Positions 1 to 25,248 of a stretch of DNA of 27,121 nt are shown here, in pieces. Position numbers and translations under genes: made by a program. The DNA lies in IMG/VR virus record IMGVR_UViG_3300025637_000049, positions 1-27,121 of that record; one strand, written 5' to 3'. This stretch comes from a virus (Duplodnaviria > Caudoviricetes). The first letter of the stretch is position 1; each line of letters opens with the position of its first letter. The notes beneath the pieces are model-generated. The model searched no databases, was not told where the DNA came from, and worked only from the letters and a program-made list of their open reading frames with translations.

Positions 1-1
1 T

Positions 2-151
2 ACACTTGGCAACCTTAAACAGTTTATGGCTACGCAATTTAACAACCCACAATTTGCAAACTACGCGCTAAAAATGGGCAAGCAACCGTTAGTTGTAGCG
101 CCTAAAAATATGGCCGTTATTGCACCGACAGCCGACCAATTAACAGCATAA
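2..151 (+). CDS. 3' end of a hypothetical protein (partial, runs off the window start)
   Basis: Open frame from base 2 to TAA at 149-151: TLGNLKQFMATQFNNPQFANYALKMGKQPLVVAPKNMAVIAPTADQLTA*. Followed by hairpins. Not in the ORF track. Confidence 0.5.
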   Translation, partial: TLGNLKQFMATQFNNPQFANYALKMGKQPLVVAPKNMAVIAPTADQLTA

Positions 152-162
152 ACCATGCCAAC

Positions 163-194
163 ATGCAACACTGTATACCCATACAGTGTTGCAT
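163..194. repeat. Perfect 14-bp inverted repeat (hairpin)
   Basis: ATGCAACACTGTAT (163-176), loop ACCC, ATACAGTGTTGCAT (181-194). Confidence 0.9.
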
Positions 195-247
195 ACGTAG
201 CACACATATGGTAGGTGTGCAAGTGGTATTATTACCAAAAAGGGGGG

Positions 248-269
248 GCAAAAAAATATTTTGCTTTTT
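248..269 (+). terminator. Possible weak intrinsic terminator
   Basis: GCAAAA-AAATA-TTTTGC followed by TTTTT. The stem is AT-rich, so the call is weak. Confidence 0.3.
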
Positions 270-350
270 AAAATAAAATCCGCCATAGTGTCTCTCATCA
301 CATTCTTAAATTATGCCATTTAAAATCACTATGTATGCACGGAGGGCTTA

Positions 351-731
351 ATGCCTCAGTTAGTTATACTGTCGGGTAGTCCTGGAAGTGGGAAGTCCAC
401 AACTGCCAGAACCAAGTACCCAAACCACCACCTTTGCGACAAAGACCTAGGCACCGAGCGTGACTACCAAAAGTACGTAAACCAAGATTGCGTACTTACA
501 GCTTGCGCCCCCACCAAGAAACAGAAGTCTTATTGGATTAAACAAGCCAAGCTCTATGGCTTTACTCCGTTAGTGCTGGTAGTATGGGTAGATAGAATGG
601 TAGCCTACGACAGAATGCTAGGTCGTAGCGGTACAAGTAAAGACCAGATGAACAACAAACAAGCTGGCGTAGAGCAGTGGTTTAAACTATACAAGCCACA
701 CCCACTAGAACAGAAGGTAGCCAATGAGTGA
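351..731 (+). CDS. Small P-loop kinase/ATPase (AAA_33 / polynucleotide-kinase-like)
   Basis: N-terminal Walker A LVILSGSPGSGKST. RBS GGAGG upstream. Overlaps the next gene by 8 nt. Confidence 0.75.
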   Translation: MPQLVILSGSPGSGKSTTARTKYPNHHLCDKDLGTERDYQKYVNQDCVLTACAPTKKQKSYWIKQAKLYGFTPLVLVVWVDRMVAYDRMLGRSGTSKDQMNNKQAGVEQWFKLYKPHPLEQKVANE

Positions 732-1113
732 CAAACCAGATTATTTGGTGGACGTGCCTGCGGAGTATATCTCAGCTGACGAGTACGAAGCCCAAGAAGT
801 TGTGCAGCAAGAGCAAGTAGTACAGATAACAGACTGGGAGCAAACAATGTCCCAGCTTGCAGAGCGCAAGGCCACTAGCATTACAATCCCCCGTGGTGCT
901 GGCTTCAACAGAGCACAGATAGTCCAAGCCTTCGACAATGCCTTCCACCTTATTGGCGGTACTCCTAGGCTGGCACTTTGGGCAGACGAGAATCCAAAGG
1001 AGTTCTTTAAGCTGTATGCTAAGTTGCTACCAAGCCAGAGCACCAGCAGTCTAGGCGAAAGTACAGACATAGTCATTAAGCACATCCTACCGAAGAGTCC
1101 CCTAGATGAGTGA
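724..1113 (+). CDS. Probable terminase small subunit
   Basis: Directly upstream of and overlapping terL. IGG..RLALWADENPKEFFKLYAKLLP resembles a motif common in phage TerS-position proteins. Confidence 0.65.
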   Translation: MSDKPDYLVDVPAEYISADEYEAQEVVQQEQVVQITDWEQTMSQLAERKATSITIPRGAGFNRAQIVQAFDNAFHLIGGTPRLALWADENPKEFFKLYAKLLPSQSTSSLGESTDIVIKHILPKSPLDE

Positions 1114-2449
1114 GATACAATTAGCTTATAAACCTAGAGAGCAGTTCTTACCTCTGCATAACAGAAAAGAGCGCTGGGCTTGCTTGGTAGTGCATCGGCG
1201 TGGTGGCAAGACAGTAGCTACCATAAACGAGATGATAGCCAGAGCCAGTTACACAAACAAGAAGAATGCCCGCTACGCTTACATAGCTCCGTTCTATCGG
1301 CAGGCTAAGGATGTTGCATGGGTGTACTTAAAAGAGTTTGCTGGTGATGCTATTGTAAAGATTCGCGAATCTGAGCTGCGGGTTGAGCTTTTCAATGGTA
1401 GCTGGATTACATTGTACGGTGCGGATAACCCAGATGCTTTGCGGGGACTTTACCTAGACGGCGCAGTACTAGATGAGTTTGGCGATAGCCGACCTAGTTT
1501 GTGGGGTCAGGTTGTACTCCCCACCTTGGTTGACCGTAAGGGCTGGGCTATCTTTATCGGCACACCCAAGGGCAAGAACCACTTTTACGATATATCAGTA
1601 AGGGCAGAAAGTGATCCAGGATGGTACAGCCTAACTTTAAAGGCTAGTGAGTCTGGACTTATAAACCAGTCTGAGCTTACAGAAATGAAAGCTCAGATGG
1701 CTGACGAAGAGTATGAGCAGGAAATGGAGTGTGACTTTTTGGCTGCGGTCAAGGGTACATACTACAGTGCAATAGTAGAGAACTTAGAAAAGAGCGGTGT
1801 GATATCACCTACCGTAGCCCGTTATGATCCTAGCCTACCAGTTCAGGTAGCTTGCGACTTAGGTTACAGTGATAGTTGCGCTTGGTGGTTTTGGCAAGAG
1901 CCTGTTGGCAAGCGGCCCCAAGTAATTGACTATTACGAGAACCAAGGGCAAGCCCTGCAACACTATATAGATATGCTGAGAAGTAAGGGTTACTTGTTTG
2001 ACAAGATATGGCTACCACATGACGCAGTAGCTAAAACTCTGCAGACGGGACGGTCTACTGTGGAGCAGATGTTAGACGAGGACTTACCAGTGATGGTTGT
2101 GCCAAGATTAAGCCGCCAACATGGTATAGATGCCGCCCGTAAGGTTCTCCCCAGTGTTTATATCAACAGCGACAAGTGTTACGAGGGTGTCGAGGCGCTA
2201 AGGGCATACCGAAGACGCTTTAATGAGCTAACTAAGTCTTTTAGTGACGCACCCCTACACGATTGGTCAAGTAATGGCTCTGATGCGTTCCGTTACCTTG
2301 CTTTAGTAGTGCAAGACAGGGTAGAATGCGAAGATGAGAGTACCAAAGACCCTGAGCCACTGTTAAAACCCCAAAAATTCACCCTAAACCAGTTATTTAA
2401 AGAGAACGAGCGCGGAAACAAGCGTAGATTCCAAAAATCGAGGATTTAA
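1106..2449 (+). CDS. terL: Terminase large subunit
   Basis: Walker A VHRRGGKT, YIAPFYRQAK, LRGLYLDGAVLDE (Walker B), FIGTPKGKNHFY coupling motif, nuclease domain ACDLGYSD ... HDWSSNGSDAFRY. Confidence 0.95.
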   Translation: MSEIQLAYKPREQFLPLHNRKERWACLVVHRRGGKTVATINEMIARASYTNKKNARYAYIAPFYRQAKDVAWVYLKEFAGDAIVKIRESELRVELFNGSWITLYGADNPDALRGLYLDGAVLDEFGDSRPSLWGQVVLPTLVDRKGWAIFIGTPKGKNHFYDISVRAESDPGWYSLTLKASESGLINQSELTEMKAQMADEEYEQEMECDFLAAVKGTYYSAIVENLEKSGVISPTVARYDPSLPVQVACDLGYSDSCAWWFWQEPVGKRPQVIDYYENQGQALQHYIDMLRSKGYLFDKIWLPHDAVAKTLQTGRSTVEQMLDEDLPVMVVPRLSRQHGIDAARKVLPSVYINSDKCYEGVEALRAYRRRFNELTKSFSDAPLHDWSSNGSDAFRYLALVVQDRVECEDESTKDPEPLLKPQKFTLNQLFKENERGNKRRFQKSRI

Positions 2450-14240: not shown

Positions 14241-14993
14241 ATGGCACTATTTCAACCATACCAAAGAGTAAGCAGAGCAAAAGTTCCGTCTTATGTACAG
14301 GCAGAGATTGCACAAGCAAGGGCTGACCAAGCCTCTAAGTCTGCTGAAAACTCAGCAAGGTCTATGAATATGTTGGGTGGAGCCACCCTCTATAACCAAG
14401 GTATGAATGCAGCGGGTAAGTCGCCTATTAGTGACTTCATCAGTGAGTCATTTGATGGTGGGATGACAGGTACTCCAACATCTACCGAAGCACTACCCAA
14501 CGACCCTAGTATTCAACAAAATATGGACCTTATGGATGCTGGTCTAAACGACCCTAGTGTAAATCCAGGAGCTATGGGGCCAGTAGACCCAGCATTGTCA
14601 ACAGTAGACCCACTAACTACCGCCGCAGAAGCTAATGCAGGAGTTGTTCCTGTAGATGCAGGAGTTGTTCCTGTAGATGGTGGCATTGGCGGTCTTGGTA
14701 CTGAGGCAGGCGCATTAGGTACTGAGGCAGCATTAGGTACTGAGGCAGGCGCATTAGGTGTTGAGGCAGGCAGTACAGCAGCGTTAGAGAGCGCACTAGC
14801 AACTAACGCAGCAGCAGGCACTGGCGTAGGCACTGGCGTAGGCACTGGCGTAGGCACTGGCGTAGGCACTGGCGTAGGCACTGGCGTAGGTACAGCAGCA
14901 GGTGGCGCAGCAGGTGGTGGCGCTATGAGTAGTGCATTAGCGGCCTTGGGGCCATTAGGCGCAATTGCGGCACTAGCCGCCTTATTTGGGTAA
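14241..14993 (+). CDS. Gly/Ala-rich ejection protein with C-terminal hydrophobic helix
   Basis: RBS AGGAG. Tandem repeats (GTGV)6. Ends ALAALGPLGAIAALAALFG. Confidence 0.72.
   Translation: MALFQPYQRVSRAKVPSYVQAEIAQARADQASKSAENSARSMNMLGGATLYNQGMNAAGKSPISDFISESFDGGMTGTPTSTEALPNDPSIQQNMDLMDAGLNDPSVNPGAMGPVDPALSTVDPLTTAAEANAGVVPVDAGVVPVDGGIGGLGTEAGALGTEAALGTEAGALGVEAGSTAALESALATNAAAGTGVGTGVGTGVGTGVGTGVGTGVGTAAGGAAGGGAMSSALAALGPLGAIAALAALFG
14637..14770 (+). repeat. In-frame 21/18-bp tandem repeats
   Basis: GCAGGAGTTGTTCCTGTAGAT x2 (14637-14678), then four GGTACTGAGGCA(GGC)GCATTA-type units from 14697. Confidence 0.85.
14817..14888 (+). repeat. Perfect 12-bp tandem repeat x6
   Basis: (GGCACTGGCGTA)6 encoding (GTGV)6. 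Confidence 0.95.
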
Positions 14994-14999
14994 TATAAA

Positions 15000-16358
15000 A
15001 TGCCAATAGACTTTTCACAATTGCAACAAGCTATGGGTGCAAACACTCAGGCGCAGGCTGATTTTCAGGCAACTGAAGACCCATACGCTTACGCCCAGCA
15101 ATTACGGGGTGGAGCTAACATACAACCAGACGCATATGGGCAGGTCAGCCCGTTGCAGATTATAGGTGATATGATTGGTCAGTCTACTGGTCGCAGAGAT
15201 GTTAGAAATCTAGAAGAAGAGCGCAAAGGTTTGTCACAAACCATGGCAGCGGCTGAGGCTATGAAGCAGCAGTACGAGTTAGAGGGTATTGAGCAAGATA
15301 GGGCGCTTAAACAGACCGCAGAAGCTAGGGCTGTAACCAAAGAAGCTAGGGAGGCAGCTAAGGTAGATGATAGAGACAAAACCCCTAGAACCTTTGTTGG
15401 CAACACTGGCCCAGTAGGTGCAGATGGTAAAAGGGCTACTGTAGAAGTTATGGGACTGTTTGACCCCATGGCCAAAGAGGGTAAGGGTGGTTGGGTTACT
15501 GAAGACGCACAAGGTAACACAGTCGAGATAAATATGTCGGAGATGAGAGAAAAAGAAAGTGCAGCTTCTGGTAATCGTAAAGGTTCTAAAGCAATGCCCA
15601 GCAGCACTTTGAAAGAGTTCAGAAACAAGGCTTCTAGAATAGGTAGCTTAAACCGAACCATAGATACTTTTGACCCCTCCTACATTCAGTCTGACTACGG
15701 TGGTAAGGCAGTTAAGACAGGTGTTATAAACAAAATTATGGATAAGTTCGCCAAAAACGACCTTGTCGATGTTATAGACTCAGAAGAGTTCAAAGAATTA
15801 GATGTCCAACTGCAAAAATCTATGTTGTGGTGGGGTGAGTTGATGCAAGGGTATAGTTTACAAGAGCGCCATGACTTGTTTGGTGCTACTCTGACAAATA
15901 ACGAATTCAAGAGTTGGGAGCAAGCGTTCGCGGTGATGAGAGGTATGGACCCTGAGACAGCCAAGGCTAGGCTGGGCATGGCTTCCTCTAGGGCTAATAG
16001 AATACTAGCTAACGACATAAACGTCACCAGAGCTAACTACCAAGACATTCCAGGAAATGTAGCCGCCATGGATTTACTTGCTGAGCAAGTAGGTTTCGAG
16101 AAAGCTGGTGAAGATGATTTGTGGCAATGGACTGGTTTATCAGAGTTTGAGAGCCAGTACATAGATAAGTTTGGTAATTTAGTAACCCAAACACAAGAGG
16201 GAGGGTCTACCCCACCAGAAGGTGGTGCAGGGGCGGGTACTGACCCCACTCAGTATGACATTTTTAAGCAAGGTATGAGTTCTGAAGACCAAGCTAAGTT
16301 TGACCAGTTAAGTGAATCTAATAAGCAAGTTTACATGACCCAGCAAGGTATGATATGA
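15000..16358 (+). CDS. Internal virion / ejection protein
   Basis: 452 aa, helical, in the ejection block, coupled to the next gene by ATGA. Confidence 0.7.
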   Translation: MPIDFSQLQQAMGANTQAQADFQATEDPYAYAQQLRGGANIQPDAYGQVSPLQIIGDMIGQSTGRRDVRNLEEERKGLSQTMAAAEAMKQQYELEGIEQDRALKQTAEARAVTKEAREAAKVDDRDKTPRTFVGNTGPVGADGKRATVEVMGLFDPMAKEGKGGWVTEDAQGNTVEINMSEMREKESAASGNRKGSKAMPSSTLKEFRNKASRIGSLNRTIDTFDPSYIQSDYGGKAVKTGVINKIMDKFAKNDLVDVIDSEEFKELDVQLQKSMLWWGELMQGYSLQERHDLFGATLTNNEFKSWEQAFAVMRGMDPETAKARLGMASSRANRILANDINVTRANYQDIPGNVAAMDLLAEQVGFEKAGEDDLWQWTGLSEFESQYIDKFGNLVTQTQEGGSTPPEGGAGAGTDPTQYDIFKQGMSSEDQAKFDQLSESNKQVYMTQQGMI

Positions 16359-22011: not shown

Positions 22012-22391
22012 CCTTGGTTTACATAACCTTTCATTTCTTTCTGGCACTCGTCATCCATCAACTTATTAATAAGTATTGAGGCCTCGTAGTAGTCTGCATC
22101 AGCCACATACAATATGGCTGCTTCAACCTCTACTGGTATGTCTACACCCTCCAGCCAAAAGTTCAGACTTATAGAGTCGTCTGGGTGCAGCGCTCTTATA
22201 CCACACTTATTAGCTTTTTTGACAAAACTTAACGCCTTGTCAAGGTCTTGATACCTGTTTTCTTTTTCACGCAGCAAGTACTTAGTTGCGCAAGCCTGTA
22301 AATAGTTCATGTCTGTATCTACAACCATGTCCCAATGTTGGTACTCAGTACCCTCGTAATGCTCTCCACCCACCTGCTTTACATAACTCAT
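22008..22391 (-). CDS. DUF3310 (T7 gp1.7-like nucleotide kinase) protein
   Basis: QVGGEHY ... YLQACATKYLLR ... QDLDKA signature. Start placed at ATG 22391 (ATGA overlap). Confidence 0.8.
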   Translation of the reverse strand: MSYVKQVGGEHYEGTEYQHWDMVVDTDMNYLQACATKYLLREKENRYQDLDKALSFVKKANKCGIRALHPDDSISLNFWLEGVDIPVEVEAAILYVADADYYEASILINKLMDDECQKEMKGYVNQG

Positions 22392-23374
22392 GCTTTCCAC
22401 TCCTGCCATTTTTCACACGCTATACGCCAATTTTGGTCTGATATTTGCTTAACCCAATGAGAGCCATCGCCACCATCTTTCCTTTCCATATACGCCCAGT
22501 ACATGGGGTATGCCACCACTCTAAACCATTGTGTTTTAAGGACAGAGCGGCTGCTAATCAAACCTGCTTCAAAGCATGTGGCGTCATCTATAAAGTCAGC
22601 CATTTTTTCGTAACCGCTTATCAATGGCACACAAGGGTAAAACCCGTAGTTATCAAAGGTTGGCAGTATGGGGTATCTTATGTTCAGCAACTCCGTGGCA
22701 TTGGGTAGGTCTTGGTAAACGTGGGCATTGTTGGTGAATACAATATAGCTACCTATTGGTATATCTGCTTCGGCGGCTATTAACTCTTGCAACATAGTCA
22801 TATGTACAGCATTGGCACCTGTCATACCCCATATAACATCATTGCTACGGTTACAAACTGTCATATTTAGTTTGCCATCAACAACTCTAAAGTATATGTG
22901 GGTATTGCAGGGTAGGTCGTTGTGGTGGGTGTCTAGGTCACAAGACCCATCCCACATAGACAACACTACCCGCCTCGTGGTTGGGTCTTCTTTAAGCATT
23001 CTGGCAGCAGCTATTAACTGGTCTCGGCCAAAGTGGTTGCGCCATCGGTAGCCATAAGCGCCATGTATCAGAGGCTTTTCAACCATGTTGTTGGTGTCTG
23101 CATACTCCTTAAACCTGCCATTAAATTGTTGTATCCAGTCTGGCTCTTGGCTACCCGACATCATCCATATAAACTCCATAGCATGGAAGTATGGGTTAGC
23201 TTTTCGCACTGGGTCTAGCAGTACTCTGTGCTTTGGGTTTTTTACAGTTATTGTCAGCGGCTCCTGTAGGGTTAGCACATTGCCATTCCTACTTTCTTCA
23301 AGGTCGCCATTTATGTGCATGAGAATCATCATCTCGCTGAACATGGTTGGTACATCTCTTACTACTTTTTCCAT
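22388..23374 (-). CDS. Thymidylate-synthase-fold dUMP hydroxymethylase (probable)
   Basis: SRNG, ANPYFH, GAYGYRWR, DPTTRRVVLSMWD, catalytic PCN, RSNDVIWGMTGAN (Asn at the dUMP-specificity position), NNAHVY. Resembles phage hmdU synthases rather than ThyA. Confidence 0.85.
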   Translation of the reverse strand: MEKVVRDVPTMFSEMMILMHINGDLEESRNGNVLTLQEPLTITVKNPKHRVLLDPVRKANPYFHAMEFIWMMSGSQEPDWIQQFNGRFKEYADTNNMVEKPLIHGAYGYRWRNHFGRDQLIAAARMLKEDPTTRRVVLSMWDGSCDLDTHHNDLPCNTHIYFRVVDGKLNMTVCNRSNDVIWGMTGANAVHMTMLQELIAAEADIPIGSYIVFTNNAHVYQDLPNATELLNIRYPILPTFDNYGFYPCVPLISGYEKMADFIDDATCFEAGLISSRSVLKTQWFRVVAYPMYWAYMERKDGGDGSHWVKQISDQNWRIACEKWQEWKA

Positions 23375-23400: not shown

Positions 23401-24243
23401 TTAAGTGCCATTATACCTACGTTTGCTTCGACCGCAATTAGTAGATACTCTCATATACTTGTCAAATTCACACAAGCAATTCTGTAAGTCTTGGGCGTGT
23501 ATATCTGGTATGCCCAACCCATGCAGTTGGTCTGTTACTTCTTGAAGCAGCCATGGCATATGGTGCTTAAACTCTGTAGGGGTTACTTTTTCTTTCCCAA
23601 GTACCCAAGCCAAGCCCCTCAAACTTCCAGGACCGTGGGCGCACCAACTACGAAAGTCGTCTGCATAAGTAAGCTCGTGACCCTCTGTGTTTTTAAGGTC
23701 AGCTATTATTTGTGCAGCCATGAAACTGCCAAGCCCCTGTAAGCCCATTAGCGCCACATGAGCTTTTGCCAAGGTGGTTGCACCACTTGTTAGGTCTTTT
23801 TGCTGCCACAGGCTGCGTAGCAAGCCCCCAATGTACTCGTGCTTGGGTACACTACGGCCATTAGTACTAACTATATAAGCAGACCCCCAAGAACCACCTT
23901 TTGACATAACCGCTCGCCATTTTGGTGGGTCAAAGGTAGTCCATGGCCACCCAAGTGATTCTAGTGTTTCTATTTTGTTGACAAACCTAGCCATAACCAT
24001 GTTCTGGACTATGGTTTCTGTGGTAAACCCTGCATGTCTGTTATACCACATCTGGCGAATACCTTTAGTAACCCTGTCAGCCTCCCTATGCACATTACAA
24101 AAGTATGTTTCTTGGAATACTTGGTCAAGGCTCCATGGCTTTTCTACACCACTCTCTTTATTGAGCCTTACTGAGTATCGCTCTTTGATCCAGTAAATTA
24201 GCTTGTCCAAATTTAAAGGCTCGTTTCCATTGTACATTAACAT
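23401..24243 (-). CDS. 5-hmdU DNA kinase-like protein (aGPT-Pplase1 / HMUDK helical family)
   Basis: YWIKER ... PWSLD ... YFCNVHREADRVT, GSFMAAQIIADL, GPGSLRGL, DLQNCLCEFDKY. Start placed at ATG 24243, with GGAG 7 nt upstream. Confidence 0.85.
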   Translation of the reverse strand: MLMYNGNEPLNLDKLIYWIKERYSVRLNKESGVEKPWSLDQVFQETYFCNVHREADRVTKGIRQMWYNRHAGFTTETIVQNMVMARFVNKIETLESLGWPWTTFDPPKWRAVMSKGGSWGSAYIVSTNGRSVPKHEYIGGLLRSLWQQKDLTSGATTLAKAHVALMGLQGLGSFMAAQIIADLKNTEGHELTYADDFRSWCAHGPGSLRGLAWVLGKEKVTPTEFKHHMPWLLQEVTDQLHGLGIPDIHAQDLQNCLCEFDKYMRVSTNCGRSKRRYNGT

Positions 24244-24961
24244 CTGTTCTCTCCCCACCGCCCCATGCGGCCTTAGTTGTTTTCTTGACTACCTTAACAA
24301 ACGGCTCATGAAGCTCGTGTAGCTTATTGGCCGCCTCTGTTTGTATCTCTGGAGTTCTGTAGGTACTACACCCTCCTTTGGTATTACTTCCGCCTTGGTT
24401 ATGAACCCAGTTATTAAGGCTAACGTTGGGGTATCCTAACTTTAACATTTGTAACAGCATGTCAAAGTCTTCCATAACAGGCGTTCTGTCATACCTTACA
24501 TCATTGTGACTTAGTATTCTAGTGTCAAGCCCTGTAACTCTTGTTATTCTTGTATTGTCACTCCAGTATTCTGTCTGCCTATTACCCCCCTCTCTAGCGC
24601 AAACCCCTACAACAGGAATACTGTCTAGTGTAACCTCAATGGTATCAACCATCTCCTCTATATCTTCGGGGGTGCTGGGTTTAAACTTACCTAAATCTTC
24701 TTGGCGGCGAGTGGCAAACACTAGGTCGTCATCTAGTAGCAATACTTTGCCCATGAAGTTATCTATAATCCACTGTCTTGTCGGCCCTACCGTGGTTATC
24801 CACTCTGGCAGCACCACAACAGGGTATTGTGTGCGGCACCAGTACTCATCCCACTCTTTACCTTGTACTACAAACTTGGTTCTTTCTCTTACACTTGGGG
24901 GTAGGTTATCCCAAGTAGTCTGTTTAGCTTTCCTACCATAAGTAGGTATTAGTATTTGCAT
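24158..24961 (-). CDS. GT-A DNA glycosyltransferase (TAGT / JGT-GREB1 / T-even beta-glucosyl-HMC-alpha-glucosyltransferase-like)
   Basis: ILIPTYGR, TRQWI, LLLDDDL (DxD), EDFDMLLQML, GGCSTYR, VQWKRAF. RBS GGAGAG. Confidence 0.85.
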   Translation of the reverse strand: MQILIPTYGRKAKQTTWDNLPPSVRERTKFVVQGKEWDEYWCRTQYPVVVLPEWITTVGPTRQWIIDNFMGKVLLLDDDLVFATRRQEDLGKFKPSTPEDIEEMVDTIEVTLDSIPVVGVCAREGGNRQTEYWSDNTRITRVTGLDTRILSHNDVRYDRTPVMEDFDMLLQMLKLGYPNVSLNNWVHNQGGSNTKGGCSTYRTPEIQTEAANKLHELHEPFVKVVKKTTKAAWGGGERTDVNVQWKRAFKFGQANLLDQRAILSKAQ

Positions 24962-25017: not shown

Positions 25018-25248
25018 CTATGCAACTTCAATAAACTTTCGGCTGACATCGTAAGCAATGTCTTGGTACTTAACACCATTTGTGATCGCTTGGCCAACAG
25101 TGCTGGCATTCAAGTAACCATCAAAACGTACAGCAGATTTAGAACCTGCTTTTTTAGGGTTTTCATTTACAAGTAGCTTGAGGGTGGCGTCCGCAGGGTA
25201 CAAAACACTGAACTTGCTACGGCGACTCTTTTTAGTTTCTTCGGTCAT
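25018..25248 (-). CDS. Small basic putative DNA-binding protein
   Basis: NPKKAGSKSAVRFDGY ... TVGQ ... G ... DIAYDVSRKFIEV pattern, seen in small phage nucleic-acid-binding-like domains. Has its own promoter and terminator. Confidence 0.7.
   Translation of the reverse strand: MTEETKKSRRSKFSVLYPADATLKLLVNENPKKAGSKSAVRFDGYLNASTVGQAITNGVKYQDIAYDVSRKFIEVA

Follow-up and report, generated by a model that had tools for sequence, protein, structure and literature searches.

Hypermodified bases in phage DNA are usually viewed as armour that protects against nucleases, and it takes biochemical work to find the sequence contexts in which they occur. For the thymine-modifying phages M6, ViI and phiW-14, passages of one article report hypermodification in TG and TC contexts (PMC6449724), and parts of a second article also give TG and TC contexts (PMC13458397). 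In Pseudomonas phage iggy, the deazaguanine dPreQ0 is placed at GA by DpdA, according to passages of PMC10484667. Here we describe an island almost free of TC and GA (one dinucleotide read on either strand, TC/GA below) around a small recoded gene, which begins upstream of, and ends within, the IMG/VR record IMGVR_UViG_3300025637_000049 of a Caudoviricetes virus. The window analysed is the entire 27,121-bp record. The phage is podovirus-like; its plus strand carries the genes for terminase, portal and capsid, its minus strand a replication and modification block. The sequencing runs that contain it are for the most part marine metagenomes. The recoded island is apparently undescribed so far, and the literature searched (mainly open-access, without supplements) holds no account of such an island. 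The hydroxymethylase, Pplase1 and TAGT module of the same phage is of a known predicted kind.

Positions 1-278 of the window contain no TC and two GA (at 127 and 134), where base composition predicts 14.5 + 18.3 = 32.8 sites. This direct count bears out a preliminary description of the DNA, made from its letters alone, which had expected about 30. As stated there, the first TC lies at position 279, positions 291-300 read TCTCTCATCA, eight TC/GA sites fall in 721-780, and the depletion reaches the protein level, the partial reading frame 2..151 encoding 49 amino acids, among them a single Asp and neither Glu nor Ser. Over the whole contig, segments of 278 bp hold 25.8 ± 5.6 TC/GA sites on average, and the lowest one elsewhere, at 14725, holds five. 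The dip at 14725-15010 (second-lowest in TC/GA) comes from Gly/Ala/Thr tandem repeats (GTGV/GTEAGAL) of a 250-amino-acid gene and is unrelated to the island.

The complete unit can be read in a near-identical contig (L001, terminase large subunit, terL, 100% identical), in which window position 1 corresponds to position 527:

L001 227-805: TC/GA-depleted island of 579 bp, its 3' half being window 1..278
L001 310-337, upstream of the window: promoter-like site TTGTAT-N16-TACTAT, missed by a stock promoter scan
L001 399-677, plus strand: island gene encoding a basic protein of 92 amino acids, without Asp, Glu or Ser in L001; its last 49 codons are window 2..151
Window 163..194: perfect 14-bp inverted repeat with a 4-nt loop, directly past the stop codon, read from the sequence
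Window 265..296, plus strand: T5-A4 ... TCTCTC element at the downstream end of the island, its position conserved across loci

The L001 island holds a single GA in its 579 bp and both of its edges are sharp. The GA at 127 and 134 in the window represent a strain variant close to the end of the island gene and are absent from L001 and from the contig L002. The gene product has a predicted beta-alpha-beta-alpha-alpha-beta domain and matches nothing in Pfam or PHROG at E ≤ 0.1. Searches of the ESM Atlas and PDB sequences with island proteins gave no matches, and a search for their cultured relatives found none. The inverted repeat, which has no U-run and was not called by a terminator scan, is a putative terminator or binding site. 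The T5-A4 ... TCTCTC element occurs at the equivalent place in L001, L004, L044, L045 and L108, as well as in L046, which has no desert.

The preliminary description had taken positions 1-278 for the tail of a larger TC/GA-poor genome domain, and its check on the composition upstream gave a divided answer: in the contig L144 (terL 100%) the first 300 nt are depleted (0 TC, 1 GA), and the next 300 nt are not (11 TC, 27 GA). Instead of a domain there is an island of 0.42-0.87 kb, adjoined upstream by a repeat-rich block with TC/GA above average (38 sites per 300 nt in L144; 11-24 sites per 100 nt in 16 of 18 loci), and the early genes past this block show TC/GA at ordinary levels. The block could act as a modification-dense barrier. 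TC/GA-rich repeats of this type lie at L001 80-226, L005 4500-4730, L071 8290-8440 and L072 1400-1575, and in several loci the GA-rich part comes first with the TC-rich part at the island edge.

The island is real and conserved. In relatives as distant as 47% terL identity (L081) it precedes terL by 0.8-4.5 kb, and it was found in 6 of 30 terL loci in a first scan and in 12 of 54 further loci in a second, where the other dinucleotide classes yielded one scan segment only beyond log10 p -6. In 30 of 80 metagenome loci, terL is preceded by 2.4 kb or more of sequence; 17 of these carry the island, many being phages already counted. Sixteen non-identical islands pooled, 8,979 bp in all, contain 36 sites where 1,119 are expected; their edges were set post hoc, which cannot explain a 30-fold gap. 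The depleted zone extends 81-466 bp 5' of the ATG and 7-128 bp 3' of the stop codon. Partial depletions, as intermediate states, are seen at L082 1900-4200, L181 900-1400 and L057 80-560, and L082, a sister to the island phage L081, has a broad dip to half the usual level. Other local dips include a CC/GG-poor stretch in a distant terL relative (L095 217-517, 10 sites against 38, log10 p -7.1) and, in L141, dips of GA/TC at 27704 and 42700 and of AC/GT at 38453. AG/CT dips in L170, L171 and L173 were considered as an alternative island and are short repeats.

The constraint acts on DNA, on both strands and in coding sequence as well as in non-coding flanks. The 18 island genes contain 32 TC/GA sites, 14 of which belong to the partial case L181, where random synonymous coding of their own proteins gives 296. 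Their Ser codons are AGY in 55 cases and TCN in four, and Asp plus Glu make up 12 of 1,736 residues against 12.5% in eight window genes. Once TC/GA is forced out, the other 14 dinucleotides of the pooled islands stand at 0.90-1.15 of expectation; the depletion of AG/CT, considered as a signal of its own, is a by-product of TC/GA removal (0.92 of expectation). In seven of 16 islands the Glu codon of a conserved E-P motif still contains GA, which is the sole in-gene site in six of the seven, and because this Glu keeps its GA, the island proteins are evidently real and selection on the protein can hold single sites. An mRNA motif as the cause is ruled out, since the avoidance is reverse-complement symmetric and the upstream flanks are clean. 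Of 26 single changes listed between strains within the island, four are site-creating, against 33% of all possible ones; they were not used, several of the 26 being linked or adjoining indels.

The same data bear on the most trivial explanations, namely an assembly artefact, a bias in amino acids, or mutation pressure from UV damage or from deamination specific to TC, which are largely refuted and in our estimate very improbable. AA and TT do stand at 1.11 of expectation in the pooled islands, as mutation pressure might produce. In the desert-less relative G011, however, the columns with TC correspond in the island orthologues to TT (18), GC (15), AC (13), TA (7), CC (7) and other pairs (21), and because these replacements are varied, C-to-T deamination is unlikely. 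Amino-acid bias can lower TC/GA, as in the milder dip of the Gly/Ala repeat at 14725, but is rejected by the recoding control (32 sites against 296). An assembly chimera at about 280, raised in the preliminary description, is excluded since contigs from three DNA runs, each of a different study, bridge the edge at 279. In one further run, which may be RNA, only fragments are covered.

The modification block of the window contains the following genes:

22388..23374, minus strand: deoxyuridine monophosphate (dUMP) hydroxymethylase-like gene (PF00303, thymidylate-synthase fold), 35% identity to M6 gp58
23401..24258, minus strand: aGPT-Pplase clade 1 gene (Pfam name HMUDK_hel), 28% identity to M6 gp55
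24158..24961, minus strand: TAGT-family glycosyltransferase gene (PF20691)
25018..25248, minus strand: 76-amino-acid gene directly 5' of TAGT, likened to the island gene by position and eye only

The genes for TAGT, aGPT-Pplase1 and the hydroxymethylase stand side by side, as in the module predicted to make a base-J-like glycosyl-hmU, to which G003 adds a sugar-nucleotide epimerase beside TAGT. The hydroxymethylase-like proteins share 33-44% identity with M6 gp58, and the predicted enzyme has Asn at the uracil-specifying position, aligned with the Asn177 region of E. coli thymidylate synthase. The 76-amino-acid gene, for which an alignment gives 14% identity, occupies the place at which relatives have a paralogue of their island gene, and eight records carry a paralogue of the island gene with normal composition directly upstream of TAGT. 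The preliminary description had named an HMUDK in this operon; the protein is instead aGPT-Pplase clade 1, the homologue of M6 gp55, and not the hmU kinase. M6 gp54 (HMUDK) was unmatched by tblastn (E ≤ 0.01) in 21 loci including the complete G002 and G003, a single query that distant kinases could escape, and M6 gp51 (AADT, aGPT-Pplase2) was likewise unmatched in the 21 loci.

From these gene families, the modified base is predicted to be a glycosylated 5-hydroxymethyluracil (hmU), and the island, by analogy with the TG and TC contexts of other thymine-modifying phages, suggests TC as its context. Composition cannot distinguish among the four bases, so that the target could instead be either base of GA, or the C of TC, modified by an enzyme not recognised here; GA is the proven motif for deazaguanine in iggy in the passages of PMC10484667. 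We regard this as quite improbable. The DpdA proteins of iggy and CAjan and the QueC of iggy found no match in the 21 loci, complete G002 and G003 included, dpdA and queC are absent from the Pfam scan matches as well, no methyltransferase or TET was found among 112 proteins scanned, and the hydroxymethylase has the uracil-type Asn.

The reading we favour, to which we give about an even chance, is that the island is a modification-free bootstrap unit in a genome that has glycosylated hmU at TC elsewhere, and that its product aids in switching on the rest. Virion DNA would carry glycosylated hmU at TC, and the sugar would hinder the host RNA polymerase, which would handle such DNA poorly. The island unit, kept TC/GA-free by selection, would then be transcribed first from the incoming genome, and its predicted winged-helix-like, DNA-binding product may help to open TC-bearing early promoters, as an activator with a logic like that of MotA. 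A more specific version, which we hold only tentatively, is that of a cassette that escapes the sugar which the phage itself places at TC and that encodes a reader of the modified base, able to unlock early promoters gated by TC. In the window lineage, 11 of 12 early promoter-like sites that lie outside the island have the form TTGyWT followed by C, with TC at the junction of the -35 element and spacer; the set represents about five distinct positions, each in up to three relatives, and the pattern was defined after looking. Among the 11 is the site ahead of the replication genes (L031 1465). In the island site, TTGyAT is followed by A, and the TC junction occurs in none of seven island sites, against a background of 72 of 291 for C after that hexamer.

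The distribution of the island among relatives was compared with that of the modification genes in 21 fetched records. All five island records that cover the modification region carry the hydroxymethylase, aGPT-Pplase1 and TAGT genes (the region is missing from the records G006 and G007), and the island occurs in none of ten records without modification genes, three of which (G015, G016, G017) are 91-100% complete; the island-bearing part of the genome is not in the records G010 and G021. The preliminary description had asked whether the desert is common to relatives with these genes, which the five carriers bear out; it does not extend to G011 and G012. These two, together with several other observations, weigh against the bootstrap reading. 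They carry both the modification genes and the unit, yet TC/GA in the gene is normal, G012 retaining a partly depleted 300-bp stretch upstream of it (7 sites against 34). In a comparison of gene content no gene family separates island from non-island genomes, no island is present in PhiJL001, LuckyBarnes, MW202897, M6 or CAjan, and the promoter junction is TC in only 17 of 38 sites across all island phages. A recent relaxation of the desert fits G011, because its island-gene protein is nearly acid-free, with one acidic residue only, and because it is nested among island phages, inside a 99-supported group with G001, G002 and L064 in the terL tree. In that tree (50 rows, quick method) the island label is no more clustered than under shuffling (12 changes; 92 of 500 shuffles are as low), a test that tells little, many of the rows without an island being contigs too short for it. 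The proposal of the preliminary description that the phage's own thymine modification has TC as its context remains the leading idea because the depletion is real, extends upstream of the window, affects both strands, shapes the protein and is common to relatives with hmU and glycosyltransferase genes; the link to the genes runs one way.

The loss of the island in G011, among close relatives with the same genes, would also be expected if the island gene were an anti-defence gene that has to survive a host system acting at TC/GA, such as a modified-T nuclease or a TC-specific enzyme, with the identity of the host setting the pressure. This would account for avoidance on both strands, and modification-dependent nucleases exist, as passages of PMC6449724 describe. 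The TC/GA-rich block adjoining the island and the otherwise ordinary genome argue against it, since a nuclease would cut alongside. The host motifs TNTC, GATC and GANTC, named in the preliminary description, fare no better, as they require the loss of only some contexts, and every TC context is gone. DNA-mimic proteins are acidic, in contrast to the basic island protein. We consider anti-defence rather improbable. A separate trait of the whole window is the near absence of CCGG (2 against 71 expected, both strands) and the scarcity of CGCG (22 against 72), which is probably host restriction-site avoidance distinct from the TC/GA island.

The surroundings of the island are relevant to a further alternative, in which the island is kept sugar-free for the handling of DNA (origin firing, the start of packaging or duplication of a terminal repeat) and the gene is recoded as a bystander. 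Downstream of the island lie:

351..731, plus strand: P-loop kinase/AAA_33-like gene, 3' of the island in some relatives and missing in others
724-1113, plus strand: putative terminase small subunit gene, by position and conservation
1106-2449, plus strand: terL

The island has the repeat-rich block on one side and the terminase genes on the other, many contigs begin inside it or within 0.9 kb upstream, both strands are clean, and in iggy the GA-poor zone is for the most part non-coding. Its edges, however, track the gene unit: the depleted zone moves with the gene on inversion (L007, L045, L057) and widens in L072 to 865 bp, common to two divergent Asp/Glu-poor genes. Contig depth is flat across the region, with no end signal of the kind that first-injected DNA, as proposed in the preliminary description, or a terminal repeat would give, although contigs cannot show ends. 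A role in DNA handling appears unlikely to us. Upstream of the rich block, repeats of the GTTACCTATG type, both direct and inverted, form an origin-like array at L004 3290-3600. In L064, L066, L069 and L112, many TTAACATAAT / ATTATGTTAA repeats flank the island gene on both sides; they are retained in the desert-less G011 and are candidate binding sites. The early-gene region of L004 encodes a pyrimidine-dimer glycosylase-like protein (870-1331, PF03013, E 1e-4).

If the bootstrap reading is true, DNA modification would serve as a built-in transcriptional switch, and the armour would have a cost, modified DNA being unusable by host machinery, together with a fix undescribed in the literature searched. 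Such islands would disclose the sequence context of a modification from the genome alone, here predicting T in TC as the context of an uncharacterised TAGT module: a whole clade flags one context in plain sequence, at the price of Asp and Glu. A simple genome scan could then find other phages, with iggy as a weaker case with a proven motif, and G011 and G012 would provide natural controls.

Among the described systems, M6/YuA, ViI, phiW-14 and SH-Ab 15599 represent hmU, HMUDK and AADT systems. The window phage resembles M6 in its homologues of the hydroxymethylase gp58 (35%) and aGPT-Pplase1 gp55 (28%), and differs from M6-type systems in having TAGT, with HMUDK and AADT unmatched in the 21 loci; M6 itself has no island and only mild intergenic depletion (CA/TG 0.75, GA/TC 0.79). 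PhiJL001 and LuckyBarnes share the TAGT, Pplase1 and hydroxymethylase families, with a base-J-like glycosyl-hmU predicted, but are siphoviruses with no dinucleotide island, unlike the window clade. Iggy has a local GA/TC-poor zone of the same dinucleotide class, with 16 sites in 679 bp against 67 expected (L222 10450-11128; MN029011.1, about 59,950-60,628), which goes unmentioned in the literature passages on this phage that were available. It differs in enzyme and base, the depletion is about 4-fold and not 30-fold, and the zone is mostly non-coding. In T4, early protein (MotA/AsiA) permits the host polymerase to work on sugar-modified promoters via an element near -30, according to a passage of PMC6755090. 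There, in contrast, every C is modified, no gene is modification-free and MotA has a double-wing domain; the fold matches listed for the island protein include no chain of MotA or AsiA. T5 and T7 avoid restriction sites in the DNA that enters first, a likeness in local motif avoidance in DNA that is needed first. Their avoidance concerns host sites of 4-6 or more bp and entails no loss of amino acids, whereas here it concerns a dinucleotide, pointing to the phage's own chemistry.
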